IMG/VR virus record: IMGVR_UViG_2778261268_000005
DNA length: 32,642 nt
Source of the DNA: a virus
Lineage: Duplodnaviria; Heunggongvirae; Uroviricota; Caudoviricetes
Direction: 5' to 3' (one strand)
The notes under the pieces are model-generated. The model was not told where the DNA came from, searched no databases, and saw only the letters and a list, made by a program, of their open reading frames with translations. The stretch's first letter is position 1. Every line of letters begins with the position of its first letter. The position numbers were made by a program, and so were the translations under genes. Positions 2,618-32,642 of the stretch are shown one piece after another.

Positions 2618-3282
2618 AAGCCAAAACCAAACTCCTGCACGACCTGGTTCTTAATACCTGACCACGATAGCGCCCCGTCTGACGGCATCCCTTTATCAAA
2701 TTTATCCAGAACGCTCGCCAGCGTTTTTACCGTTTGTTCGACAGACGACAATGGTTGCTCAAACTCAATCTGCCAGGTGTGCTGAACCTGCTTGTTCTGC
2801 TCAGAGAAACCGGATGTATCGATAAACGACCGCATCAGACAGCGCGTGTAGATGAAAGATGGCGTCATTACGGTGTAACAACCGCCATACTGGTTATGCA
2901 TATCGAGCGCCATTTTCAGCGCCGTGAATGTCATCCCCTTAGTGATGTAGCCACCGTCCTCCGTTGATGCCGGACGGATCATCTGCATGACTACCCGGTT
3001 AGGCTTCTTGACGGTCGCATTCGCTGCCGTTACCTGGTTATAGAAATTCAGGTTGCAAATATCCTGCTGAACCAACGTTGTCCCCGCCATCGGGGTAAAT
3101 GCCGCCATCGAGCGTGTACGAATCTCGCCATGCAGCAGACCGTTCACAATGCTTAGGCCTTCGGTCAAAACAGCAATCGGCATCACCCCGCCGGGAATTT
3201 TCGACGCTATGCCATCAACTAAAAGAATGGGCGATACTTCAAACGCCAGTTTGAAAGCTTGTCCAAAGTAATTAAGTGACAT
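2614..3282 (-). CDS. hypothetical tail protein (222 aa) immediately downstream of tape measure
   Basis: ATG start 3 nt after the tape measure stop; operon context. Confidence 0.4.
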   Translation of the reverse strand: MSLNYFGQAFKLAFEVSPILLVDGIASKIPGGVMPIAVLTEGLSIVNGLLHGEIRTRSMAAFTPMAGTTLVQQDICNLNFYNQVTAANATVKKPNRVVMQMIRPASTEDGGYITKGMTFTALKMALDMHNQYGGCYTVMTPSFIYTRCLMRSFIDTSGFSEQNKQVQHTWQIEFEQPLSSVEQTVKTLASVLDKFDKGMPSDGALSWSGIKNQVVQEFGFGL

Positions 3283-3285
3283 GGT

Positions 3286-5361
3286 TTACCCCGGTATTTG
3301 TTGCATTCCGGCGAGTTGTGCCAGTATGTCGGAACCTGGTTTTTGTTGAACGTCGAGCCTGATTACCTGAGAAGTATTATTTGGTGAATATACGTTTCCC
3401 CGGTTCATTGCCAGCGCCCGCATCACATCATCGCCACTTACTGCACGAGCGGCGTCCCCATTTTCATGGTTAATAATGCCCTGAATTAGCTTTCTCATTA
3501 TCTCAAAATTAGAACCATCGATTTTCTCCTTAACACCTAATCCGGTGTACTGAGAGAGATAGCTTTTATAGGACGATGTGTTATTTCCATCAGATGAAGG
3601 GGCATAAATATCAATAATCTGATCAATCGTATTTTTGCCGCGTTTCAGGTATAGCATTACCTGCCGATCTAAGGCAGCAATGCCTTCCAGCATCGTCGGG
3701 AAGCTGGCAAAACGGGCATTTGGCCCCGATTCCAGGGTAGCCCCTTTTTGTCCTGCGAAATTAAGATTTCCGGGATTGTTATTCCTGATCCCTCTGGATA
3801 AATATGCAGATCTGTTTACTTGATTTGAAAATCCCTGCAATCCTCCAGGCCAGACCTTACCCGGATTGTTTTTTTGCCACTCCTGCACTTCGTTAAAATA
3901 ATCAAAGTTGAAACGCCCCTCCAGCCCTTTCATTTCCTCACTGGTGGTAGGTGTGTCATTTGTAGGAATAGCCAATCCAGCTACTGTTCCGGCTGTAGCC
4001 CCAAGAAGACTTCCACCAACAACACGGGCGGCAACTCCGGTCGTTGTGGCTGCCACAGCACCAACTCTCGATGGTCCAGCAAGTACTGCGGCCCCAAAAA
4101 GCCAGGGATGTTCAACCGCAAAACCAACAAACCCGCTAAGTGCCTTAACAACCTTTGCAACATTTTCGGCAAAATTATTCAGGTCGTTATTAAAATCCGG
4201 GCCATTTACATACTTACCAAGTTTATCCAGACCTGTTTCAACATCAGTCAAAATTCTTTTAAAGTTCTCACCGTTAAGGAAATTTAGACCAGCATTCTTT
4301 ACACCATTAGATATTCTAATTAGCTGTACAGAGTTACCCGACATTACCCCCTGAAATCCGCTGGTAAGTTGATCCCAGTTATTTTCTAAGTTGCTGGTAA
4401 GATTCTGATACTGGCTTGTATGTCCAGAGGTGAGCAACGAGTCATTCTGAGAAGCTCGCGATAAAAACTCTTTGTTGAGTTCAGGTATTTTGTCCTGATA
4501 TTTGACTAACTGGTTAGCAATACCAAAATTTACCCATCCAAGGCCACGACCTCTGAGCATGCTCTGAGTAAGTCCAGTTCCCTCATACTCCTTTGCAAGA
4601 GCAGCAACTCTTTCTAACAATACAGGAAGATTTTCTGCTGCCCCTTTTTTAGGATTTATCCCTAATCCAATTAGCCCGTTGTAGGCAGGATGCTGAGTGT
4701 CATTTTGCGCGGCTGCCAGTGTATTGAGCAAATTACCAACACCGGAAAAATAAGGCGAATAAGTGCTTTCTGCCGCCTTTAACTCTCCTGGCGTTGCCTG
4801 CAATTCATCAGCATTTTTCTGTTTCTCTACAACATTACGAGCCATCATGCCAAAGCCAAACGGCCCGGCAACACCCATAACCGCAAGTTTTGTCCCCCAC
4901 GATACGGTGGTTTTAAACAGGTTGTTTAATCTCGAAGTCGTCGTCCGTAGCGTAGAATTGATCTGCTTGTAAGTTTTCAGCGTCTGTTTGGCGTTTTTCC
5001 CCAGCCCGCTGAGGTACTTATCAAACATCGTTTCGCCGCGACCTTTATAGTTGCTCACCAGCGAATCAGGTGTTTTCCCGCTGCCAACAAAGCGCCATTT
5101 TTCATCCCTTAAACGTCCATCAGTGGAAGCAGCCAGAACTGGCGCGGGTGAAGATGGTTTCCTGGGAGCCTGATTGGCTTCTCCGCCTGTGGTTGTCTGC
5201 CAAGAGCCACCTCCCGGACCGGTATTTGAAGGTATTTTAAGCGGCGTACCGGCAGGGCCAATCATCAGTCCGTTGCGATACTTTTCAAATATCGCCTCAA
5301 GCCGCCTGAGGTGTTCTTCATTAACATCCAGCGTCAGAACTGGCATCTGGTTACCAGCCAT
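3286..5361 (-). CDS. tail tape measure protein (691 aa from ATG 5361)
   Basis: Largest tail ORF, directly after the chaperone pair; Gly/Ala-rich hydrophobic stretch; start overlaps the stop of the frameshift-extension ORF (TGATG). Confidence 0.6.
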   Translation of the reverse strand: MAGNQMPVLTLDVNEEHLRRLEAIFEKYRNGLMIGPAGTPLKIPSNTGPGGGSWQTTTGGEANQAPRKPSSPAPVLAASTDGRLRDEKWRFVGSGKTPDSLVSNYKGRGETMFDKYLSGLGKNAKQTLKTYKQINSTLRTTTSRLNNLFKTTVSWGTKLAVMGVAGPFGFGMMARNVVEKQKNADELQATPGELKAAESTYSPYFSGVGNLLNTLAAAQNDTQHPAYNGLIGLGINPKKGAAENLPVLLERVAALAKEYEGTGLTQSMLRGRGLGWVNFGIANQLVKYQDKIPELNKEFLSRASQNDSLLTSGHTSQYQNLTSNLENNWDQLTSGFQGVMSGNSVQLIRISNGVKNAGLNFLNGENFKRILTDVETGLDKLGKYVNGPDFNNDLNNFAENVAKVVKALSGFVGFAVEHPWLFGAAVLAGPSRVGAVAATTTGVAARVVGGSLLGATAGTVAGLAIPTNDTPTTSEEMKGLEGRFNFDYFNEVQEWQKNNPGKVWPGGLQGFSNQVNRSAYLSRGIRNNNPGNLNFAGQKGATLESGPNARFASFPTMLEGIAALDRQVMLYLKRGKNTIDQIIDIYAPSSDGNNTSSYKSYLSQYTGLGVKEKIDGSNFEIMRKLIQGIINHENGDAARAVSGDDVMRALAMNRGNVYSPNNTSQVIRLDVQQKPGSDILAQLAGMQQIPG

Positions 5362-13775: not shown

Positions 13776-14028
13776 AGGATGTATTTCCGGGCTTGGCTTA
13801 GTATATGACCAATCACAGTTTTGTTTTTGTCGATGTTTACAACATCAGAATAATGCATTTAAAGTAGTAAAAATATTTGCTAATAATGCATTATTCCGAT
13901 GGTGTAAAAAATGGCACTGGAACCGCAACGAATATCACTCATTACAGAACAGGGGGCGCAAGGAACCATAAAAAACACCCTACATATATTATGTCAGTGC
14001 CTAACACAATCTCGCCTTAGTTACTGTT

Positions 14029-14101
<73 letters not shown>

Positions 14102-14388
14102 ATACTGTGCTGGCCCCCGGAATAACACGAATTACCAAGAGAGCCCGCACTGGTCTTTCCGGTGGCAAACAGCACCCCTGCTAACATAAAAGATAAACAC
14201 CTTCCAGACGCAAAAATACTAACAACTGTTTTTCAGATATCCAAAATATATTTGGTTTTTATTTTTGAAAATATGTATACATATGTATCATAAATATACA
14301 AGCCATATCATAACCGAATTAAAAATCTTTAGTTATCTCTTTTGCCGTCTGATCACCACCCACCGGCAGCTGAGAATTCCGGCACACA

Positions 14389-14453
14389 ATGAAAAAGGCC
14401 CGCCAGGGCGAGCCATAAAAACTGAATAAAAAAACCGCCCGGGGCGGCGGCTA
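14389..14453 (-). terminator. tandem pair of intrinsic terminators, copy B of the duplicated module
   Basis: Same two-hairpin architecture and flanking sequence as copy A, with point differences. Confidence 0.55.
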
Positions 14454-14815
14454 AAACGATAAAAGGACACAATATTATAATGATTATTGGGTTTGGGGCA
14501 TCGGGTGCCTCCCGAAGTATTCCACTTTACGTGGATACTGTGGTTTCCCGCTAAACCGACTCTATAAACCACCCTCGCACTGAGGAACGCCCCAATTCAT
14601 GTTTTCCGACACAGAGATGGCGCATCACTGGTTACTCCACGCTAAATCCTGCTTCCTTTCGTGGGCAATGCGCCATTTCTGTGTCATAAAAAATACAGCA
14701 CTGAGTCTGTAACCGATCTCCATTACAGAATGAGGGACGATAAAGGTATTAAAGAGATCTGTTCCTCACGAAAACCGCCAGTGCTGTAAAAACTTGTCCA
14801 AAAAACAATGAAGTT

Positions 14816-14884
14816 GCGGAGAACAGGAATCGAACCGGCATTACCAACCTAAGGCTGATGTAATAACCACTATACGATACCTGC
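14816..14884 (-). pseudogene. tRNA-like element, probably a degenerate paralogue of the tRNA-Gly gene
   Basis: 5' half nearly identical to the Gly tRNA (GTATCGTATAGTGGTTATTAC) and a TTCGATTCC T-loop, but anticodon, T and acceptor stems do not pair properly. Confidence 0.4.
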
Positions 14885-15406
14885 ATATAGAGCAGGCCTC
14901 CGTAACCACAATAATGACACTGATACTGATAACAGCCCTTCATTATGATTAAACGGATGCCAGCAATGACCCGCAAGACAGCGGGTAACACCCCTGTGAA
15001 CAGAAACTTGCTGCCTTTCGGGTCGAGAGTAATATTACCGATAATTTATATGACATCAAAAACTAATTAGTTTTCATATTTAAACATATGTATAAATATG
15101 TATCAGACGCATACAATTTATGTTATTTCATCCAGACTTCTGATTTCTCACAGGAAATTGCGAAAAAAAAACAACATAAAAATGAACAAATTGGGAGTAC
15201 GCTAACTCCGTTGTCGCAATAAATCACAGTAAGCTCTTCAGAAATAACAGTTCACAAGACTTACATCAACAGTAGTTTTTGTAATGATTAATGTTAACTG
15301 TAGCGTTGAAAAGAAAAGTTTTGACGAAATATGGTGAACTAACAGAGCCTAACGAATAGCCCTATTACGCCGAGCTAATAGCGCTGCCAGCTAAACTTGC
15401 ATGGAA

Positions 15407-15483
15407 TGGTCCGCCACCGAGGACTCGAACCTCGCACAATCAACTTAGAAGGTTGATGCTCTATCCCGATGAGCTAGTGGCGG
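15407..15483 (-). tRNA. tRNA-Arg(UCU), CCA encoded
   Basis: Acceptor CCGCCAC/GTGGCGG, anticodon loop CTTCTAA (anticodon TCT), T-loop TTCGAGT, 3' ACCA. Confidence 0.8.
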
Positions 15484-15485
15484 AA

Positions 15486-15561
15486 TGGTGGCCCTTGCTG
15501 GATTTGAACCAGCGACCTGGCGATTATGAGTCGCTCGCTCTCACCACTGAGCTAAAGGGCC
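15486..15561 (-). tRNA. tRNA with CAU anticodon, ileX/ileZ-like (Ile2 if lysidine-modified, otherwise Met), CCA encoded
   Basis: GGCCCTTTAGCTCAGTGG...ACTCATAATCGC...GGTTCAAATCCAGCAAGGGCCACCA; closely resembles E. coli ileX as recalled; 2 nt from the Arg tRNA. Confidence 0.8.
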
Positions 15562-15701
15562 GATTGAAAAATATTGACTGAATCAGTTTAGCGCTGTAAT
15601 CCACCCAACACAACCGTTTAAATCTTGTATGTCAGCTACAATCAAGTAAAAATATCTGAACAACAAGCAGAAAAGTCTATATCCCGGTTACTCATAATGT
15701 T

Positions 15702-16415
15702 TTAGCGCACTTTGACTATATTAATTTCAAATTCATCTGTATGTGCGCTATTAAGTATAACGAAATTCGTACTACCGTGCCTGTACGATTTTGATAAAAC
15801 CAAGCGATCACCATAGCGAGCAAGAACGTAATACCAAACGCTCTCATAGTGAAGTGTCTGATACTCCTTCTTAAACTGAGGTTTGTACCATCCAGCAATA
15901 AGCGAAAACAACCAGAAATAGAGCATGAATCCGGCCATAACACACTCAATCTTGTGATGCCGAATAAAAGACACTTCAGAAATACATTTAACGTAAATAA
16001 ACTTCCTGCCCGTTCTGACGAACATGGTAATTATTAATGCCACAATAGCGCATAAAACCAATGCATCTGGTACAAAGTGCTGATGAATTACCGAAAACTC
16101 CAGAGCCGGAGGAACAAAAAGCAACAATATCGCAAGAAAAAGCCTGACAGCACTCAAATCCTTCATATTATTTTTTTGTTTGATCCCCAGAAAGAAGACA
16201 ATACCGATCCCCCATCCAGCCAAGAATATAACGATAACTGTGACAGCATAAAACAGGCTTCTGGCCACATCATCAACACCGGCCCCGACAACCCACCATG
16301 GAAAGCCATAGTAAAAGGAAGTACCCCAGCCATAGAAATAAGCACTTCCCCACCCAAGACACCCCATGTAAGCAACAAAAAGTGAAGAATTCCTGAGCAG
16401 AGTACTGTCACTCAT
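15702..16415 (-). CDS. hypothetical polytopic membrane protein (237 aa from the second ATG; about 5 hydrophobic segments); late-region cargo gene
   Basis: AT-rich ORF between the Q terminator and the tRNA cluster; AGAGG Shine-Dalgarno 6 nt before ATG 16415; W/F/G/Y-rich hydrophobic helices; no family recognised. Confidence 0.6.
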   Translation of the reverse strand: MSDSTLLRNSSLFVAYMGCLGWGSAYFYGWGTSFYYGFPWWVVGAGVDDVARSLFYAVTVIVIFLAGWGIGIVFFLGIKQKNNMKDLSAVRLFLAILLLFVPPALEFSVIHQHFVPDALVLCAIVALIITMFVRTGRKFIYVKCISEVSFIRHHKIECVMAGFMLYFWLFSLIAGWYKPQFKKEYQTLHYESVWYYVLARYGDRLVLSKSYRHGSTNFVILNSAHTDEFEINIVKVR

Positions 16416-16453
16416 AATCATCCTCTAACAACTTAACAACATTAACTCGCTTT

Positions 16454-16482
16454 ACATAACAAAGAAAATTCCATGTAGTCAA
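16454..16482 (-). promoter_or_regulatory. candidate sigma70 promoter for the membrane-protein gene (-35 TTGACT, 17 nt spacer, -10 TTATGT)
   Basis: Hexamers read on the minus strand about 35 nt upstream of the start codon. Confidence 0.3.
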
Positions 16483-16749
16483 GAGGGTTCAGGAAAGGAG
16501 AAACTAAAATTGCATAGCCATCATAAAGTTTAACGTACCAACCTGCTTTTTCAGGTATAAAAAAACCAACCTCAAGGAAAGGCTGGCATAAGAAAAGTAA
16601 ATAATGATTCCACTAAAACTTCGTCGCAGGAGGAATCCTGTGCCGCTTAACATACATAAAATTTAGACAACTAACAATCACAATATAAAATATTTAAGAT
16701 TTCGTTATCAAAATACCAGTCAGTAGAGCGCCAGCTCTCCCGTAGATGG

Positions 16750-16783
16750 TTAAACATAACAACAAAACCCGCTCAATGGCGGG
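16750..16783 (-). terminator. intrinsic terminator about 85 nt downstream of Q (tR'-like position)
   Basis: CCCGCC-ATTGA-GCGGG hairpin followed by TTTTGTTGTTATGTTT on the minus strand. Confidence 0.55.
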
Positions 16784-16868
16784 TTCTGGTGAAGTTCATG
16801 CGATTAATTCGCCACGCGATACAGCTTTGCGAAGCGTATCGGAATTGAAGCAGTTTATGCGTAAGAAA

Positions 16869-17411
16869 TCAAGCCATTTTTTGAGCAAATGATTCTCGCA
16901 TGGGAATGTATAGCGCACACTCAGCAACAGCCAACCAATTAGCAATTCGCTTTTCGCATGTGCTAAAACAACACTCTGGATACTGTTCGTTTAGTAACCC
17001 GGCCATCCTTCTCTTACTCATTCCTCGCCCCTCATACCGTTGTCGGAGGATGCTAATCAATCCCGGATGTTCTGCCAGCACCTCACTTATAACCCGATCA
17101 ATACATAACGCCTCTGCATCAGTACAATGCGCCAGCCAGCTCTTTTGCTTACCATTGATCATCTCTCGCAAAAACGCTTCCAGCTCAGGTTTCTCTATTC
17201 CCGCTTTTTTCATTCTGCGCAGGGCTTCATTGATGGCTGTTTTCGTCAATTTTTTGGATGCCAACAACTGATTGAACATATTTCCTGACCTGCCACCACC
17301 AATATATGACCAGCGCCCCCACATACGTAGTTTTCCCTGAATCCAGACACTTTCCAGCGTAGTGAGACGAAGGTGTTCTCCGCTTTTTCCTGTATTCGTT
17401 GGGTAAATCAT
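16869..17411 (-). CDS. late-gene antitermination protein Q (180 aa)
   Basis: Recalled similarity to lambdoid Q proteins of E. coli prophages; position upstream of the late region; ATGA coupling to the DUF1364 gene. Confidence 0.75.
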   Translation of the reverse strand: MIYPTNTGKSGEHLRLTTLESVWIQGKLRMWGRWSYIGGGRSGNMFNQLLASKKLTKTAINEALRRMKKAGIEKPELEAFLREMINGKQKSWLAHCTDAEALCIDRVISEVLAEHPGLISILRQRYEGRGMSKRRMAGLLNEQYPECCFSTCEKRIANWLAVAECALYIPMRESFAQKMA

Positions 17412-23425: not shown

Positions 23426-23848
23426 TCAATGCACTACGACAGAATCACCGGGCGACCCACCACCGCTGAAATGTGCTTTCCGGTAAACGGCCTGGACTGC
23501 ATCATCATGCGCATCAATTGCCGTACTCAACGCTTCCTGCGCCGCCAGTAATGCACGGCGTTCCAGGGTATCGAAGATGCAGAGTCGGTGACGCAGCTCG
23601 CGCGGAAGAATTGCCAGAACCGCAGGGATCAGTGTCTGAATTTTTTCCCTTTGCGCTTTCGTTTCACCTTTTAACCAACGGTGATAGATGTTCTGCTGAT
23701 TATTCCAGTCCTTGCCTGGTACCAGGGGCAATTCGCCGCCCCCCTGGCGCAGATATTCTTCAGTAATTGCATTGGCTACCCATGCCTGCCCTTTTTCAGC
23801 GGCCAGGGCTAACAGCACTGATTCGATGTGCTCATGCCTGATTTTCAT
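23426..23848 (-). CDS. YdaT-like protein (140 aa), cII-like regulator / putative toxin family
   Basis: Same size and position as Rac YdaT; C-terminal HFSGGGSPGDSVVVH resembles the YdaT tail as recalled. Confidence 0.55.
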   Translation of the reverse strand: MKIRHEHIESVLLALAAEKGQAWVANAITEEYLRQGGGELPLVPGKDWNNQQNIYHRWLKGETKAQREKIQTLIPAVLAILPRELRHRLCIFDTLERRALLAAQEALSTAIDAHDDAVQAVYRKAHFSGGGSPGDSVVVH

Positions 23849-24107
23849 GAATCAACTCCTGTGCATTTTGTGTGTTAGCCTTACATCCAACAGGTAAACC
23901 ATCGGTCGGATTCGGGTAGATATCAGGCCGGAGTTCATGAGGTGTAACCTCGAAATTCGTAGCCTCTGCGATACGCAATACCTTTTCAGGGCTTAACTGA
24001 CTACGTCCAGTAGCAACGAGGCTAATCATTGATTGCGAACAACCAGCCAGCGCGGCCAAACAAGACTGTCGTACACGATTTTTTTTCAAATATTCATCTA
24101 ATGTCAT
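23832..24107 (-). CDS. Cro-like HTH protein, YdaS-like (91 aa from ATG 24107; track start 24134 is TTG)
   Basis: AAGGTGA Shine-Dalgarno 5 nt before ATG 24107; divergent from the repressor gene; HTH motif QSCLAALAGCSQSMISLVATG. Confidence 0.6.
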   Translation of the reverse strand: MTLDEYLKKNRVRQSCLAALAGCSQSMISLVATGRSQLSPEKVLRIAEATNFEVTPHELRPDIYPNPTDGLPVGCKANTQNAQELIHENQA

Positions 24108-24211
24108 AAGGGTCACCTTAGTAATGTTCGCCAAAATATTAACTATACTAATTTAAATGATCAATACTTATATCAGTTTGAGATTATGAGCTGTGTTCAT
24201 AAGATGGTGGT

Positions 24212-24676
24212 ATGAGAAGAAAACGCGAAGAAATCGCATCGCCAGAAGCTACGCAGCGTCTACGCGGAATCTGGGATGCAAAAAAAAGAGAGCTCAAATT
24301 GACTCAGGAGCTTGCTGCCGAGCTAATGGGCTTTGAGACGCAATCTACGGTTAGCCACTATCTCAACGGAAAGGCTCCACTTAACACTGATGCGGCATTA
24401 AAATTCGCAGTATTGCTAAGAGTTAAGCCTGAAGACTTGAGGCCTGATTTAGCTGATCTGATGAATTACGTCCGTTCCTCTGGAACTTATGACGAAAGTT
24501 TCGAAGGCGAAGGGTGGCGGATGGTTAACAAGCAACAAGCTGATTTACTGGATCTTTTTGATATCCTCCCCGAATCAGAAAAAGCAAAACTAATCGAAAG
24601 GCTTAAAGGCCAGAATGAACTCTACAAAGAAGCGTTTGAAAATATGCTGGCAGCTCAGAAACGCATAAAGAAATAG
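24212..24676 (+). CDS. prophage repressor, RacR/DicA-like HTH protein (154 aa)
   Basis: HTH LTQELAAELMGFETQSTVSHYLNG; C-terminal LDLFDILPESEKAKL resembles DicA-type repressors; divergent to the cro-like gene. Confidence 0.7.
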   Translation: MRRKREEIASPEATQRLRGIWDAKKRELKLTQELAAELMGFETQSTVSHYLNGKAPLNTDAALKFAVLLRVKPEDLRPDLADLMNYVRSSGTYDESFEGEGWRMVNKQQADLLDLFDILPESEKAKLIERLKGQNELYKEAFENMLAAQKRIKK

Positions 24677-25210: not shown

Positions 25211-25630
25211 TCCATTATTTGGATTAATTCAATATTCTCGCTGTAGGGGTATAGCAGAAACCACCAAAGCCCGGAGGTGGTGAAATAAAACCGGGCACAA
25301 CACGAAGTCGCATTTCCGATATCCATAAAGAGTCGGTCTTGTCTGTTAAATTTAAATGGTGGGAGTGCGCCTCCGGTTGTGGATAACAACACTGCTGTGT
25401 GTAGTCTTGGCGGCATCAGTTTTTTCTTGAAGTTCGACTGATGTCCGCCCTTTTTAAAGTGAATTTTGTGATGCGGTGAATGCGGCTAAGCGCACGCGGC
25501 ACAGTTAAAAGTCATGTTAGTCCTTATTGGTTTGGGTGGGAAAGCCGACTGTAATTGTTAACTGGTTGCAGTCACCTGGAGGCACTAGGCACCGCATCAA
25601 CAAAGTTCATTTGTAAAAATGGAGATAATT

Positions 25631-25852
25631 ATGATTGCACATCACTTCGGAACTGATGAAATACCACGTCAGTGTGTGACTCCTGGTGACTATATTCTTC
25701 ATGAAGGCCGGACATATATTGCCTCGGCAAACAATATTAAAAAGCGAAAACTTTATATTCGTAACCTGACTACAAAAACATGCATTACTGACTGCATGAT
25801 TAAAGTCTTCCTCGGTCGTGATGGTTTACCTGTAAAGGCGGAGTCATGGTGA
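25631..25852 (+). CDS. kilR: KilR, FtsZ-targeting cell-division inhibitor (73 aa from ATG 25631)
   Basis: Translation [21 protein letters not shown]...[12 protein letters not shown] matches Rac KilR as recalled; GGAGA Shine-Dalgarno 5 nt upstream. Confidence 0.8.
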
Positions 25853-26022
25853 TGACTAAGAAAATAAAATGTGCTTACCACCTTTGCAATAAAGAAATTG
25901 AAGAAAGCAAAAGTATTAAAAGACCACTTCATTTCATGCGTGGAGTTATCCCAACGACGGAAATGAAAAAATATTGTAGTGAAAGTTGTGCCGAAAAAGA
26001 CCAGATGGCACACGAACTTTAA
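25852..26022 (+). CDS. YdaE-like small Cys-rich protein (56 aa)
   Basis: ATG overlaps the kilR stop (TGATG); CxxC...CxxxC pattern. Confidence 0.55.
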   Translation: MTKKIKCAYHLCNKEIEESKSIKRPLHFMRGVIPTTEMKKYCSESCAEKDQMAHEL

Positions 26023-26096
26023 TTAACTGACTATTCGAAACTGAATTTATGCCAGCAATGGCAGGGATTCGCTCAACCTTAATTAAGGAGAAAAAC

Positions 26097-26372
26097 ATGA
26101 TTACCAATTATGAAGCCACTGTTGTAACTACCGATGACATTGTTCACGAGGTTAATCTGGAAGGAAAGCGTATTGGCTACGTGATTAAAACAGAAAATAA
26201 AGAAACCCCATTCACTGTGGTTGATATCGACGGTCCATCAGGCAACGTAAAAACACTTGATGAAGGTGTCACAAAAATGTGCCTGGTTCACATCGGAAAG
26301 AATCTGCCCGCAGAAAAAAAAGCCGGATTTCTGGCAACTCTGATTGCAATGAAATTAGGCGGTGAAATCTGA
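26097..26372 (+). CDS. racC: RacC (91 aa from ATG 26097)
   Basis: AAGGAG Shine-Dalgarno 6 nt before ATG; sequence and position immediately upstream of recE match Rac racC as recalled. Confidence 0.65.
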   Translation: MITNYEATVVTTDDIVHEVNLEGKRIGYVIKTENKETPFTVVDIDGPSGNVKTLDEGVTKMCLVHIGKNLPAEKKAGFLATLIAMKLGGEI

Positions 26373-26473
26373 AAGAAATAGCCTGCGCCATACGCAGGCT
26401 ATGAACAGTGTGTATCCGGCAAGATCATTCACTGAACAAAACGAATTTTAATCTGAGTTGAGGTTAAAAAACA

Positions 26474-29400
26474 ATGAGCACAAAACCACTCTTCCTGTTA
26501 CGGAAAGCGAAAAAATCATCCGGTGAACCTGACGTCGTCCTGTGGGCAAGCGACGATTTTGAATCGACCTGTGCCACTCTGGACTACCTGATCGTTAAGT
26601 CAGGTAAAAAACTGAGCAGCTATTTTAAAGCTGTTGCCACGAATTTTCCTGTCGTTAATGACCTGCCCGCTGAAGGTGAGATCGATTTTACCTGGAGTGA
26701 ACGCTATCAACTCAGCAAAGACTCCATGACATGGGAACTAAAACCGGGAGCAGCACCAGACAACGCTCACTATCAAGGCAATACCAACGTCAACGGCGAA
26801 GACATGACTGAGATTGAGGAGAATATGCTACTCCCAATTTCTGGCCAGGAACTGCCCATTCGTTGGCTTGCTCAACACGGCAGCGAAAAACCGGTAACGC
26901 ACGTTTCACGCGACGGACTCCAGGCATTACACATTGCTCGGGCTGAAGAACTACCGGCTGTTACTGCCCTGGCTGTTTCCCACAAAACCAGCCTGCTCGA
27001 CCCGCTGGAAATTCGCGATCTCCACAAACTGGTTCGTGACACTGACAAAGTTTTCCCTAATCCTGGTAATTCAAACCTGGGACTGATAACTGCTTTTTTC
27101 GAAGCATACCTGAACGCTGACTACACCGATCGAGGACTGCTGACAAAAGAGTGGATGAAGGGTAATCGTGTTTCACACATCACTCGCACGGCTTCCGGTG
27201 CTAATGCTGGCGGCGGAAACCTCACCGATCGCGGCGAAGGTTTCGTACACGATCTGACGTCACTGGCGCGCGACGTAGCCACTGGCGTACTGGCCCGTTC
27301 AATGGATCTGGACATCTATAACCTTCATCCGGCACACGCTAAACGCATTGAGGAAATTATCGCTGAAAATAAACCGCCCTTTTCTGTTTTCCGCGACAAA
27401 TTCATCACCATGCCTGGCGGGCTGGATTATTCCCGCGCCATCGTGGTTGCGTCCGTAAAAGAAGCACCAATTGGGATCGAGGTCATCCCCGCGCACGTCA
27501 CTGAATATCTGAACAAAGTACTGACTGAAACCGATCATGCCAACCCTGATCCGGAAATCGTGGATATTGCCTGCGGTCGCTCCTCTGCCCCGATGCCGCA
27601 GCGAGTAACAGAAGAAGGAAAACAGGATGATGAAGAAAAACCGCAACCATCTGGAACAACGGCAGTTGAACAGGGAGAGGCTGAAACAATGGAACCGGAC
27701 GCAACTGAACATCATCAGGACACGCAGCCGCTGGATGCTCAGTCACAGGTAAATTCTGTTGATGCGAAATATCAGGAACTGCGGGCAGAACTCCATGAAG
27801 CCCGGAAAAACATTCCATCAAAAAATCCTGTCGATGCCGATAAATTGCTTGCTGCATCACGTGGTGAATTTGTTGACGGAATTAGCGACCCGAACGATCC
27901 GAAATGGGTTAAGGGGATCCAGACTCGCGATTCTGTGTACCAGAACCAGCCAGAAACGGAAAAAACCAGCCCGGATGTGAAACAACCTGAGGCAGTAGTG
28001 CAACAGGAACCGGAAATAGTCTGCAATGCCTGCGGTCAGACTGGCGGAGATAACTGCCCTGACTGTGGGGCGGTGACGGGCGACGCAACATACCAGGAAA
28101 CATTCGATGAAGAGAATCAGGTTGAAGCTAAGGAAAAAGATCCGGTGGAAATGGAAGGCGCTGAACATCCGCACAATGAGAATGCTGGCAGCGATCCGCA
28201 TCGTGATTGCAGTGATGAAACTGGTGAAGCGTCAGCTCCTGTAGCAACTGAAATCATGTGGCCGTCATATTTCGAGCCTGGCCGCTATGAAAACCTCCCG
28301 AACGAGGTTTATCACTCCGCCAACGGAATAAGCAGCACGATGCTGAAGGATGCCCGTATCAGCCTGATGTATTACCACGGGCGGCACATTGCCGGAACTA
28401 TTCCGAACGAGGAAAGTGATGCACTGCTGCGTGGGCGGATCATTCACAGCTATGTTCTGGAAACGGATAAATTCGCTGATGAATATGCCATTCCGGTACC
28501 GGTTCCTGAATATGTGGTTACTACTTCTAACGAACTGATCGCCATCATTAAAAAACACAATGCCAGTCTGCCAGCACTGATGACACCAGAGCAGATGAAA
28601 GAGTGGATCGAAAGCTACAACAGCACTCTTATACAGCCACTGTCTGTAAGTGCTGGGGCCGAAGAAACAGGCATCCTTTACGGTTCGCTTCCGGTGGAAT
28701 TTCGGCGTATTCCTGAGGGGGAAAAACATACAGCATCAGCAATGAAAGCCTGTATTAAAGAATACAACGCAAGCCTCCCTCCTCTGTTGAAAACCAGTGG
28801 AGCACGGGAGCAGCTTCTGGATCAAATTGAAACTGTAGACCCAGAACTGGCAAAAAAAGAACGTGCTAAATCTTTGCCTTACAACATCAGTGGCACAAAA
28901 GAGCAATTAACCGAAATCGCACGGAAAATTCGCCCGGAACTGGTGACACTGGAGGACTGGCAAAAACGCCAGCAAGAAGAAAACGCCGGGAAAACGTTTA
29001 TCAGTCCGGATATGTATGAACAGGCAAAAAATATTCACGCTGCAATGCAAAACAATACTGATGCAGCAAGGCTACTCAACCACCCGGATCGCAAATCTGA
29101 AATCAGCTATTTCGGGTTTGATGAAGAAACCGGGCTGGAAATCAGGGTCCGTCCTGATATCGAAATCCGGCTGCCATACGAAAGCATTTGCGCTGACGTG
29201 AAGTCAGTCAGCCTCGGTTATGTGCGGCAGGAACGACTTAAAGATCGCCTGCACCGTGAAATTATTGAGCGTGATTATCACCTCAGCGCCGCAATGTATT
29301 GCGATGTGGCAAACCTGGACAAATTTTTCTGGATCTTCGTCAACAAAGATGCTGGCTATCACTGGGTGGCTGTCGTGGAAGCCTCGCAGGAACTCCTGGA

Positions 29401-29548
29401 ACTTGGTCGACAGGAATATCGCCGGACGCTACGCCAGATAAACGAAGCCCTAGAGACAAACAACTGGCCAGCACCGATTACCGAAAGTTATACCGACGAA
29501 TTAAACGACTTTGATCTTCGTCGTCTTGAAGCACTGCATCTGGCTTAA
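26474..29548 (+). CDS. recE: exodeoxyribonuclease VIII, RecE (1024 aa)
   Basis: N-terminus [26 protein letters not shown]... matches RecE as recalled; C-terminal PD-(D/E)xK-like nuclease region (RPDIEIR...ADVKSV). Confidence 0.85.
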
Positions 29549-29562
29549 TGGAGAACCTGACC

Positions 29563-30651
29563 ATGCAAAATACCAATATCATCACGACAGAGCAGACACC
29601 AAATACCATTTCTGCCAGTAACACTATTTTTAACGTTCAGGCGTTGACGCAACTTCAGGCAGTAGCCGGGTTGATGTCACAGGCCACCGTCACAGTTCCC
29701 GATCACCTTCGCGGAAATCCTGCCGACTGCATGGCAATCATCATGCAAGCCATGCAATGGGGCATGAACCCCTACGCTGTGGCTCAGAAAACACACCTGG
29801 TAAACGGAGTTCTGGGTTATGAAGCACAACTGGTTAACGCTGTGATCTCTAGCTCAAGTGCAATTGTAGGCCGCTTCCATTACAAGTACGAGGGAGACTG
29901 GGAGAAATGCTCTCGCACCCGAGTGGAGACCGTTAAGAAAACGGCCAAAGGAGGCGGAATCTATGAGAAAAAAGAAACGATCCCATGTTGGACCAGTGAA
30001 GATGAGTATGGTCTCTCAGTTCGAGTTGGTGCAGTTCTTCGCGGTGAAAGTGAGATTACCTGGGGAGAACCGGTGTTTCTTTCCAGCGTGATTACGCGTA
30101 ATTCTCCTTTATGGACCTCAAACCCGAAACAACAGCTCGCCTATCTGGCGTTGAAATACTGGGCTCGCCTTTATTGTCCTGACGTCATCCTGGGCGTGTA
30201 TACCCCGGACGAACTGGAAGAGCCACAGGAAAAAATCATCAATCCTGTGCCGGTACAGAATTATAGCGAGGTAAGCGAGCAGCGAACAGAAACCATCGAA
30301 CAGCGTATTGACGAAGCGTGGATTGATGAATTCCGGCAGCGTGTCGAAAGCGCGGCCACGACTGAGGAAACCACTGCATTACGCCAAGAGATAGAGGATC
30401 AGAAAAACCAGATCGGCGAATTCTTTGCCGAGCTTAAAGGAAAAGTGGTTCGGCGTCATCACCGTCTCAATGCTATTGCCAGTATCGAGAAGATGATAAA
30501 TGACCTTCCTTCATCAGGTGATCCAGAAGCAGAACAAAAATTTACTGCTCTGGAAAATACGCTGAATGCTGCCCGGCCACATCTGGGTGAATTATATGAG
30601 GCGTATAAAACGACACTGACAGATATGAAACCAGAATATATCGGCTCCTGA
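29563..30651 (+). CDS. single-strand annealing protein, Redbeta/RecT superfamily (362 aa from ATG 29563; an earlier ATG at 29548 overlaps the recE stop)
   Basis: Motifs QWGMNPY and PKQQLAYLALKYWARLY resemble lambda Bet (QYGLNPW, PKRMLRHKAMIQCARLA) as recalled; occupies the recT slot. Confidence 0.6.
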   Translation: MQNTNIITTEQTPNTISASNTIFNVQALTQLQAVAGLMSQATVTVPDHLRGNPADCMAIIMQAMQWGMNPYAVAQKTHLVNGVLGYEAQLVNAVISSSSAIVGRFHYKYEGDWEKCSRTRVETVKKTAKGGGIYEKKETIPCWTSEDEYGLSVRVGAVLRGESEITWGEPVFLSSVITRNSPLWTSNPKQQLAYLALKYWARLYCPDVILGVYTPDELEEPQEKIINPVPVQNYSEVSEQRTETIEQRIDEAWIDEFRQRVESAATTEETTALRQEIEDQKNQIGEFFAELKGKVVRRHHRLNAIASIEKMINDLPSSGDPEAEQKFTALENTLNAARPHLGELYEAYKTTLTDMKPEYIGS

Positions 30652-30714
30652 TATTGACTTTGGCGGTGTAGCCTCACCGCCATCACAAAATTTTATTATA
30701 TGAGAGAAAAAACA

Positions 30715-30909
30715 ATGCGGTATGAAAAAGTCAAACCATGCCCTTTTTGTGGTTGTCCATCAGTAACGGTGAAAGCCATTTCAGGATATTACCGCGCGAA
30801 GTGTAACGGATGCGAATCCCGAACCGGCTATGGTGGAAGTGAAAAAGAAGCACTCGAACGATGGAATAAACGAACCACTGGAAATAATAATGGAGGTGTT
30901 CATGTATAA
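30715..30909 (+). CDS. ralR: restriction alleviation protein RalR/Lar (64 aa)
   Basis: Translation MRYEKVKPCPFCGCPSVTVKAISGYYRAKCNGCESRTGYGG... matches RalR as recalled. Confidence 0.8.
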   Translation: MRYEKVKPCPFCGCPSVTVKAISGYYRAKCNGCESRTGYGGSEKEALERWNKRTTGNNNGGVHV

Positions 30910-31090
30910 AATTACCGCCACTATTGAAAAGGAAGGTGGCACTCCTACTAACTGGACAAGGTACTCAAAAACAAAGTTAACCAAATCGGAATGCGAAAAA
31001 ATGCTCTCAGGGAAAAAAGAAGCAGGCGTTTCCAGAGAGCAGAAAGTAAAACTGATAAATTTTAATTGCGAGAAACTTCAGTCCTCGTGA
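30902..31090 (+). CDS. YdaC-like small protein (62 aa)
   Basis: GGAGGTG Shine-Dalgarno; overlaps the ralR stop; position between ralR and xis. Confidence 0.5.
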   Translation: MYKITATIEKEGGTPTNWTRYSKTKLTKSECEKMLSGKKEAGVSREQKVKLINFNCEKLQSS

Positions 31091-31189
31091 ATTGCATTGT
31101 ATTCAAATTAAAACTTCATAGCTGATTATTAATAATCAACATCGGGCGTCAATTTCAGTCTAACATTGGCGCCTGCCAGAGGTGATGCG

Positions 31190-31405
31190 ATGGCACAAGT
31201 GATCTTTAATGAAGAGTGGATGGTTGAATACGGTCTGATGCTTCGTACTGGTCTGGGGGCCAGACAAATTGAAGCATACCGCCAGAACTGTTGGGTGGAA
31301 GGCTTCCACTTCAAACGAGTATCTCCTTTAGGTAAGCCAGACAGCAAGCGAGGGATTATCTGGTACAACTATCCGAAGATAAATCAGTTTATCAAAGACT
31401 CATGA
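31190..31405 (+). CDS. excisionase-like protein (71 aa from ATG 31190; track start 31166 is TTG)
   Basis: GAGGTGA Shine-Dalgarno; stop 1 nt before the integrase start; xis position. Confidence 0.55.
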
Positions 31406-31406
31406 T

Positions 31407-32642
31407 ATGTCTAAATTACCAACAGGTGTCGAGATTCGGGGAAAATACATTCGCATCTGGTTCATGTTTCGAGGAAAACGATGTCGGGAAACATTGAAAG
31501 GCTGGGAGGTTACTAACAGTAATATTAAAAAGGCCGGGAATTTAAGAGCGTTGATAGTTCACGAAATCAATTCCGGCGAATTCGAGTATTTAAGACGTTT
31601 TCCCCAGTCCAGCACTGGGGCAAAAATGGTGACAACGAAGGTCATAAAAACATTCGGGGAGCTTTGTGATATCTGGACAAAAATTAAAGAGACAGAGTTA
31701 ACAACAAACACAATGAAGAAAACGAAATCACAATTAAAAACACTCAGGATAATAATTTGTGAGAGTACCCCAATATCACATATTCGTTATAGCGATATCT
31801 TAAACTACCGGAATGAACTGCTGCATGGAGAAACGCTTTACCTGGATAATCCAAGATCCAACAAAAAAGGAAGAACCGTGCGCACAGTTGATAACTATAT
31901 CGCCCTGCTCTGTTCATTGTTACGTTTTGCGTATCAGTCGGGATTTATATCAACCAAACCATTTGAAGGAGTAAAAAAATTACAGCGAAACAGAATAAAG
32001 CCTGATCCGTTATCTAAAACAGAATTCAATGCATTAATGGAAAGTGAAAAAGGACAGAGCCAGAACTTGTGGAAATTTGCCGTTTACTCCGGGCTTCGTC
32101 ACGGGGAACTGGCTGCTCTGGCATGGGAGGATGTGGATTTCGAGAAGGGAATTGTGAATGTCAGAAGAAACCTGACGATACTTGATATGTTCGGTCCCCC
32201 AAAAACAAATGCCGGGATCCGGACGGTAACATTACTGCAGCCGGCTCTTGAAGCACTGAAGGAGCAATACAAACTGACCGGGCATCATCGCAAAAGTGAA
32301 ATCACTTTTTATCATCGGGAGTACGGCAGAACTGAAAAGCAAAAACTGCATTTTGTTTTCATGCCCAGGGTGTGTAACGGAAAACAGAAACCTTATTACT
32401 CGGTAAGCAGTTTGGGAGCGAGATGGAATGCAGCTGTAAAACGTGCTGGTATTCGCCGCCGTAATCCGTACCATACGCGACATACTTTTGCCTGCTGGCT
32501 GTTGACGGCAGGAGCGAACCCGGCATTTATAGCCAGCCAGATGGGGCATGAAACTGCGCAGATGGTGTATGAAATTTACGGTATGTGGATTGATGACATG
32601 AACGACGAACAGGTAGCTATGTTGAATGCGCGGTTACCGTAG
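31407..32642 (+). CDS. intR: tyrosine-type phage integrase (411 aa), Rac IntR-like
   Basis: Terminal gene of the early-left operon; C-terminal catalytic-domain motifs (R...HTxRHT...Y); size and N-terminus consistent with Rac integrase as recalled. Confidence 0.8.
   Translation: MSKLPTGVEIRGKYIRIWFMFRGKRCRETLKGWEVTNSNIKKAGNLRALIVHEINSGEFEYLRRFPQSSTGAKMVTTKVIKTFGELCDIWTKIKETELTTNTMKKTKSQLKTLRIIICESTPISHIRYSDILNYRNELLHGETLYLDNPRSNKKGRTVRTVDNYIALLCSLLRFAYQSGFISTKPFEGVKKLQRNRIKPDPLSKTEFNALMESEKGQSQNLWKFAVYSGLRHGELAALAWEDVDFEKGIVNVRRNLTILDMFGPPKTNAGIRTVTLLQPALEALKEQYKLTGHHRKSEITFYHREYGRTEKQKLHFVFMPRVCNGKQKPYYSVSSLGARWNAAVKRAGIRRRNPYHTRHTFACWLLTAGANPAFIASQMGHETAQMVYEIYGMWIDDMNDEQVAMLNARLP

Follow-up and report, generated by a model that had tools for sequence, protein, structure and literature searches.

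Does a recE-like gene that stands next to an annealase gene unlike recT mark a mismatched recombination pair, or do the two genes belong together? The question was raised by a stretch of viral DNA (Duplodnaviria; Heunggongvirae; Uroviricota; Caudoviricetes; IMG/VR record IMGVR_UViG_2778261268_000005), which was analyzed over its full length of 32,642 nucleotides and is referred to here as the window. Two open reading frames (ORFs) on the plus strand are concerned. The first, at positions 26474-29548, encodes a RecE-like protein of 1024 amino acids (aa), assigned by NCBIfam and Pfam to the exodeoxyribonuclease VIII family. The second, at 29548-30651, encodes an annealase of 367 aa, or of 362 aa from an ATG at 29563, which Pfam and PHROG place in the Gifsy-type 'RecT' or 'enterohemolysin' branch of the RecT/Redbeta superfamily. 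A preliminary description had given the same ORFs with these lengths, and had regarded the pair as an unusual mismatch of RecE with an annealase resembling lambda Bet. Our results lead to a different answer. The two partners are most probably cognate, and their combination is widespread rather than unusual. The locus is very probably the early-left recombination module of a Rac-type prophage similar to Escherichia phage Rac-SA53, in which a Gifsy-type RecE/RecT has replaced the K-12 version.

Origin of the nuclease domain and the annealase gene

The RecE-like protein matched the NCBIfam RecE equivalog NF007259 at 1525.9 bits (cutoff 1269) and thus belongs to the RecE/exodeoxyribonuclease VIII family. 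In Pfam, Exonuc_VIII (PF06630, E=8.2e-98) covered aa 2-178 and DUF3799 (PDDEXK) covered aa 836-1000. Protein alignment with K-12 RecE revealed a mosaic of two origins. From aa 1 to ~590 the two proteins were ~97% identical, and beyond this point the identity dropped to ~28% and was found in fragments. The K-12 Rac-like N-terminal region of ~590 aa (26474-28243, plus strand) contains a CxxC...CxxC motif at aa 517-531. It lies within a segment (25236-28243) that was aligned to K-12 Rac by blastn with 96.9% DNA identity. The following DNA, from 28244 to 30660, gave no blastn match to K-12 Rac, and from 30661 to 32642 the identity was again 95.5%. The segment without a match is a replacement cassette of 2,417 bp on the plus strand, which comprises the nuclease domain and the entire annealase gene. 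At the equivalent position K-12 Rac has 1,640 bp, encoding RecE aa ~590-866 and RecT. The left boundary is located a short way upstream of the nuclease domain crystallised from RecE, since position 5 of the 3H4R chain corresponds to aa 611 of the window RecE. In K-12 RecE, the nuclease domain comprises residues 564-866 and can take the place of complete RecE in genetic terms (PMC11611040). From these alignments, the nuclease domain and the annealase gene are judged to have been exchanged jointly, as one cassette of 2,417 bp. Recombination in the linker before the nuclease domain and ~10 bp past the annealase stop codon would have exchanged both parts together, and would have left in place the first 590 aa of RecE, which are K-12-like, as well as all the Rac genes on either side.

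The cassette begins with a Gifsy-type PD-(D/E)XK nuclease domain (RecE aa 591-1024; 28244-29548, plus strand). The RecE nuclease structure 3H4R matched this domain by sequence with E=2.3e-7. Residues D895, D908 and K910 align with the RPD...DVK residues of K-12 RecE and are the predicted catalytic residues. The domain was 50-51% identical, without gaps, to the C-termini of HK225 gp34 and Gifsy-1 STM2632. It is not an orthologue of the K-12-type domain (RecE 588-866), to which it showed 28% identity, an insertion of ~155 aa and no DNA match. Judged by its sequence matches, it is a genuine nuclease of the RecE PD-(D/E)XK family.

The insertion (RecE aa ~680-835; 28511-28978, plus strand) is all-helical and contains an internal repeat. 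A Pfam scan of the insertion returned only noise. It accounts for the greater length of the protein relative to K-12 RecE. The preliminary description had given about 866 aa for the K-12 form, and indeed K-12 RecE has 866 aa, which makes the window protein 158 aa longer. We also considered an N-terminal extension or a start-codon artefact as the source of the extra length. Both were rejected, as the alignment places the insertion inside the nuclease domain. The mismatch proposed earlier had assumed that the whole of RecE was of the K-12 type. This assumption failed, because the similarity to K-12 ends around aa 590, at the beginning of the nuclease domain.

Family and distribution of the pair

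The annealase was compared with family models and with individual proteins. Pfam PF03837 ('RecT family') matched aa 41-227 at 127.3 bits (cutoff 24; E=7.4e-37), which places the protein in the RecT/Redbeta superfamily. This model also takes in K-12 RecT (188.9 bits) and lambda Bet (115.6 bits) and therefore does not discriminate between them. In narrower families, K-12 RecT is matched by NCBIfam TIGR00616/NF007351 (415-464 bits) and belongs to phrog_148. Lambda Bet is matched by TIGR01913 (169.5 bits) and belongs to phrog_252 and phrog_10056. The window annealase gave no NCBIfam match at E<=0.1, neither to the RecT models TIGR00616/NF007351 nor to the Bet equivalog TIGR01913. It fell into phrog_561 (E=3.8e-153), with an additional weak match to the Bet-related phrog_10056 (E=1.7e-4). 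BLASTP detected no similarity to K-12 RecT (E=38), and a single comparison with lambda Bet gave 22% identity over 249 columns (E=3e-5). In hhalign, the annealase family profile aligned to Bet with E=7e-4 (probability 26%) and to RecT with E=0.59. These matches to single sequences are weak, because the alignment diversity was low (Neff 1.9). A search of the Protein Data Bank (PDB) with the family profile recovered neither Redbeta nor RecT, and the structural model of the annealase had no significant Foldseek match in the PDB. The DNA-binding core was assigned a Redbeta-like fold.

Thus the protein is not a K-12 RecT orthologue, in agreement with the preliminary description. The further claim, that it resembles Bet rather than RecT, was borne out in part: a weak lean towards Bet is seen, but the protein is outside the Bet equivalog. 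On its profile matches, the annealase represents, beside RecT and Bet, a third branch within the RecT/Redbeta superfamily, namely the Gifsy-type 'RecT', and is weakly nearer to Bet/Redbeta. It was 100% identical to the annotated recT product of Rac-SA53. Over 98-100% of its length it was 62-64% identical to the 'RecT' proteins of Gifsy-1, Gifsy-2, HK225, mEp237 and SPN3UB, in line with its PHROG 561 membership, and it was 59-61% identical to Klebsiella prophage proteins named 'enterohemolysin (RecT)'. At 90% identity, the family resolves into more than 6,500 clusters, which bear names such as 'recombinase RecT', 'RecT family recombinase', 'Gifsy-2 prophage RecT' and 'Enterohemolysin'. Homologues 59-65% identical to the window protein are entered as 'enterohemolysin' in NCBI, UniRef and phage records. 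Within the superfamily, Iyer, Koonin and Aravind (2002; cited in PMC8093625) set apart an EHAP1-like subgroup of E. coli and Salmonella, EHAP1 standing for enterohemolysin-associated protein.

The distribution of the pair was surveyed in contigs of one genome per species, and the best 80 of 292 loci of annealase relatives were scored for the upstream nuclease. A homologue of the window nuclease domain was located directly upstream of the annealase in 76 of these 80 species loci. The same layout is present in Gifsy-1/-2, HK225, mEp237 and four Klebsiella prophages. Hence the supposed RecE-Bet-like mismatch did not hold up: the nuclease domain is itself Gifsy-type, and the combination is the one found in nearly all scored loci. 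The adjacency, together with the co-variation described below, points to a cognate two-component recombinase of the SynExo or EATR type.

Within E. coli, 5,426 complete genomes were searched at a coverage of at least 80%. K-12-type recT was found in 1,625 genomes and the DNA of the K-12-like RecE N-terminal region in 1,697. The window nuclease domain was detected in 190 genomes, in all of them with at least 95% identity, and the left junction of the cassette (28044-28443) in 191. The exact annealase allele was present at full length in 32 genomes. Most of the 190 carriers have a 350-aa allele of the annealase family, in a Rac prophage at ttcA. The Gifsy-type module therefore occupies roughly 10% of the Rac-type recE loci. 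It is common without being the arrangement of most such prophages, and its annealase is not an ordinary RecT orthologue; taken strictly, the preliminary description was thus not refuted on either of the two points that it had named for this purpose.

In two strains, the module was found in a different setting. ETEC1703 (L003, 2864-7104) and 95JB1 (L009, 1651-5864) carry a nuclease domain and an annealase 97-99% identical to those of the window, in a DicB/Qin-like prophage near yebY. Here the module is joined to an unrelated N-terminus of ~450 aa, up to about aa 455 of the window RecE. Thus nuclease domain and annealase move as one unit, and what varies is the N-terminal RecE region joined to them. 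The large N-terminal region is, by the same evidence, an exchangeable module itself.

True cross-type pairs were also observed. These loci, L063 (contig labelled Pseudomonas lundensis) and L093 (Ca. Pantoea formicae), at ~3170-4940, and also L091 and L092, have a short stand-alone nuclease domain of the K-12 type (54% identity to K-12 RecE 588-866), followed by an annealase with a core of the window type. The cores of these annealases were 61-67% identical to the window core. Their tail is of a third, shorter type, unrelated to both the window C-terminal domain and the K-12 RecT tail. Lambdoid Rec modules are known to contain many combinations of annealase and nuclease types, and Gifsy-1 is the prototype of a class with nuclease and annealase and no anti-RecBCD function (PMC12315714). 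According to PMC3121763 (citing Figueroa-Bossi 1997 and Lemire 2008), the recET orthologues of Gifsy-1/-2 suppress defects in recombination once a mutation has activated them.

Co-variation of the annealase C-terminal domain with the nuclease

The annealase is ~100 aa longer than K-12 RecT (269 aa) or lambda Bet (261 aa). An AlphaFold2 (AF2) model with a mean predicted local distance difference test score (pLDDT) of 69.8 showed where the additional residues are located. The modeled core spans aa 30-214. The DNA-binding core with its predicted Redbeta-like fold was delimited at aa ~29-225 (29632-30222, plus strand). It is followed by a predicted disordered linker at aa ~226-255 (30223-30312, plus strand; pLDDT <50 at aa 214-252) and by a helical C-terminal domain at aa 256-367 (30313-30648, plus strand; pLDDT 82-90), modeled over aa 256-365. 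The C-terminal extension of roughly 100 aa noted in the preliminary description is thus confirmed as linker and helical domain beyond the core. We propose that this domain may act as an adaptor that docks on the nuclease, on the single-stranded DNA-binding protein (SSB), or on both.

Comparison of individual loci revealed that the C-terminal domain follows the nuclease and the core does not. When the window was aligned at the DNA level with a Rac prophage carrying the common 350-aa allele (L007), the nuclease domain was ~99% identical, the core only 41-74%, and the last ~70 codons again at least 97%. Likewise, at the protein level, Rac alleles with cores ~59% identical shared at least 97% of their last ~70 aa. 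The pattern was reversed in comparison with HK225, with 51% identity in the nuclease, 85% in the core and 39% in the C-terminal domain. Hence the window annealase allele is itself a mosaic within the Gifsy-type family.

These observations were quantified. Across 11 loci, identities of the nuclease correlated with those of the C-terminal domain at r=0.95 and with those of the core at r=0.28. With 63 loci from different species, the values were r=0.72 for the C-terminal domain and r=0.12 for the core. A partial Mantel test gave 0.72 (p=5e-4) for nuclease and C-terminal domain when the core was controlled for, and 0.007 (p=0.43) for nuclease and core when the C-terminal domain was controlled for; the sequences behind all these statistics are related and hence do not represent independent events. 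Clustering of the same 63 loci at 60% identity gave an adjusted Rand index (ARI) of 0.73 between nuclease and C-terminal domain and of -0.08 between nuclease and core. Nucleases at least 85% identical were combined with cores at most 60% identical in 142 locus pairs of this set. No pair among them had C-terminal domains at least 85% identical together with nucleases at most 60% identical. Simple linkage cannot explain this co-variation, because the core-coding DNA sits between the segments for the nuclease and the C-terminal domain.

The co-variation suggests that the C-terminal domain is a portable adaptor for partner docking. A parallel exists in Redbeta, where the C-terminal domain docks on lambda Exo and, through an overlapping surface, on SSB (PMC11611040), and recent predictions for RecT C-termini are in line with it as well (PMC13490951). 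In its full form, the proposal is that specificity resides in the helical C-terminal domain of ~110 aa and the linker, matched to the RecE-type nuclease, and that the Redbeta-like core is freely exchangeable. We consider the chances of this full form to be about even.

Exonuclease activity, annealing, docking and recombination in vivo are inferred from K-12 RecET, lambda Red and Gifsy recET. By analogy with these systems, the RecE-type PD-(D/E)XK domain would resect the 5' strand at double-stranded DNA ends. The C-terminal domain, as the co-variation suggests, would then recruit the annealase, with its Redbeta-like core on a flexible linker, to the emerging 3' single strand. The annealase would coat this strand and finally pair it with complementary single-stranded DNA, either by single-strand annealing or by annealing at a replication fork.

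Several observations weigh against this interpretation. If the adaptor follows the nuclease type, the annealases beside K-12-type nuclease domains in L063 and L093 should bear a tail like that of K-12 RecT. This prediction failed, as the third tail type was found instead. The adaptor idea is therefore supported only in a weaker form, in which nucleases of different types are accompanied by different tails. The C-terminal domain had no Pfam match and no detectable similarity to the Redbeta C-terminal domain. Repeated replacement of the core in patches, with no physical docking involved, can produce such co-variation as well. Moreover, the functional evidence comes from homologues, the closest being Gifsy-1/-2 recET with an annealase 62% identical, and not from this allele, and the family is linked to the EHAP1-like group by database names only.

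Three other explanations were considered. The closest competitor is a functional pair in which the C-terminal domain has a regulatory role or a binding partner other than the nuclease, such as host SSB, and in which the co-variation reflects recombination hot spots flanking the core. The overlapping SSB surface of Redbeta speaks for it (PMC11611040), as does the proposal made with ETfinder that extended C-terminal bundles of RecT may serve SSB or other factors (PMC13490951). The highly conserved motifs GVLGYEAQLVNAV and ELKxKxV could be crossover points, and the expected RecT-like tail is absent from L063 and L093. However, under simple linkage the core should follow the nuclease no less closely than the C-terminal domain, and among the 63 loci the correlation was 0.12 against 0.72. 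To our knowledge, all hosts are Enterobacterales with near-identical C-terminal tails of SSB. Such uniform tails would not demand 25 clusters of annealase C-terminal domains at 80% identity. We regard this explanation as unlikely, though it deserves more weight than the two that follow.

It is improbable that both genes are decaying remnants of a cryptic prophage, with intact ORFs that no longer give a working recombinase. K-12 Rac is a cryptic prophage whose recET genes are silent unless activated, and no promoter-like site was found immediately upstream of the window genes. Yet in lambdoid phages a distant pL-type promoter normally drives the early-left genes. The two reading frames are unbroken, with the catalytic residues retained. 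The nuclease domain is conserved at 95% identity or more in the 190 genomes, and 100% identical copies of the annealase occur in several genomes as well as in the deposited complete phage genome of Rac-SA53. In addition, a Rac-SA53-like prophage is present at full length in the window, structural genes included. We hold it to be very improbable that a K-12-type RecE acquired a foreign Bet-like annealase, the two forming a non-cognate pair that works without contact or through a newly evolved interface. The lack of BLASTP similarity to K-12 RecT with the weak Bet match, the K-12 Rac-like RecE N-terminus and flanking genes, and the existence of true cross-type combinations in L063 and L093 would fit such an event. 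It is opposed by the replacement of the nuclease domain too, the portion of RecE that is sufficient for recombination, which is 28% identical to K-12 but 50-51% to the Gifsy/HK225 type, by the co-occurrence of this nuclease with the annealase family in the scored species loci, and by the co-varying C-terminal domain. An exchanged Gifsy-type module with cognate partners remains our preferred explanation of the locus.

The arrangement as such is already known, because it has been deposited and annotated (Rac-SA53; RefSeq 'RecT family recombinase') and is common. The family, if it is the EHAP1-like group, has been recognised since 2002, and the pair has a Salmonella counterpart with genetic evidence of function; the finding as stated changes little in this regard. 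The quantitative tracking of the nuclease by the annealase C-terminal domain, and not by the core, is modestly new and adds a little to the literature consulted. In 2025, a survey of Rec modules in lambdoid phages posed the question of exonuclease-annealase specificity explicitly and left it open (PMC12315714). The tracking provides a testable handle on this specificity and could guide the design of chimeric recombineering proteins. If the adaptor proposal is correct, phages swap cores under a fixed pair of nuclease and adaptor, and recombineering could be re-targeted by transplanting the adaptor alone.

Prophage context and comparison with known systems

The junction of the two genes was inspected for translation signals. 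The first annealase ATG overlaps the recE stop codon in the sequence TAATG (within 29546-29566) and has no Shine-Dalgarno sequence. For the second ATG, at 29563, a GGAG is found 9 nt upstream, and homologous proteins have their N-termini aligned with this start. The product of 362 aa is the likelier one, because both of these features fit the second ATG. Both starts are used in databases, with 367 aa for Rac-SA53 and 362 aa in RefSeq and the cluster representative P0001. The TAATG overlap and the GGAG before the second ATG are consistent with a single recE-annealase operon.

In the racC-recE intergenic region (26378-26402), the window shares with K-12 Rac a perfect hairpin with an 11-bp stem, ATAGCCTGCG-CCA-TACGCAGGCTAT. 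Because a T-rich tail follows on the minus strand only, this is no obvious terminator of the recE operon. It could be a regulatory or processing hairpin.

Downstream of the cassette, the K-12 Rac-like right flank (30661-32642, plus strand; 95.5% DNA identity) encodes ralR/lar (30700-30909; Pfam Lar_restr_allev), a DUF1187/rcbA-like gene (30902-31090; Pfam DUF1187), an excisionase (31166-31405; Pfam DUF1233) and an integrase (31407-32642), all on the plus strand. The immunity region (23426-24676) is of the Rac type. A helix-turn-helix (HTH) repressor-like ORF (24212-24676, plus strand) is divergent from a ydaS-like HTH ORF (23832-24134, minus strand) and an ORF with a YdaT_toxin domain (23426-23848, minus strand). 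Between the structural genes and a Q-like antiterminator (16869-17411), the region 14000-17000 has a GC content of 38-45%, compared with ~49% elsewhere. It contains an ORF of 239 aa (15702-16421, minus strand) that had no Pfam match and is possibly a cargo ('moron') gene.

For annotation, two consequences are of practical use. The labels 'recE' and 'recT' in Rac-type prophages hide at least two unrelated modules of nuclease domain and annealase on the same RecE N-terminus. Furthermore, the label 'RecT' on the window annealase does not mean a K-12 RecT orthologue.

Among known systems, Rac-SA53 (KU052037.1) has the identical annealase and the same gene order, and matches the window over 70% of 25 kb at 95% identity. 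Its RecE (L004, 2855-6001), annotated with 1048 aa, is 85% identical overall with 26 gap columns. Thus the N-terminal and middle parts of RecE vary between near-identical modules. K-12 Rac is the same type of prophage, with flanks (kilR, ydaE, racC ... ralR, rcbA, xisR, intR) of 95-97% DNA identity. Its ttcA site is shared by other carriers of the module; the window itself stops short of ttcA. K-12 RecE/RecT shares with the window the RecE N-terminal region, the PD-(D/E)XK fold, the catalytic residues and the operon order. K-12 RecE differs in its nuclease domain, which is ~28% identical and 155 aa shorter, and K-12 RecT belongs to another family (phrog_148 versus phrog_561) and lacks the additional helical C-terminal domain of ~110 aa. 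In the lambda Exo/Bet (Redalpha/Redbeta) system, Bet is 22% identical and its partner is an Exo-type nuclease, unlike the RecE-type nuclease of the window. The Redbeta C-terminal domain is also smaller and shows no detectable similarity to that of the window annealase.

The closest counterparts are the RecE (STM2632)/RecT (STM2633) pairs of Gifsy-1/-2 and those of HK225, mEp237, SPN3UB and Klebsiella, which have the same layout in an early-left operon upstream of xis/int. The Gifsy/HK225-type proteins have the same large RecE with the nuclease-domain insertion of ~155 aa (50-51% identity, ungapped) and the same order of core, linker and helical C-terminal domain in the annealase (62-64% over the full length). 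They differ at the RecE N-terminus: that of Gifsy is only ~41% identical to the K-12 Rac type, whereas the N-terminal 590 aa of the window protein are ~97% K-12.

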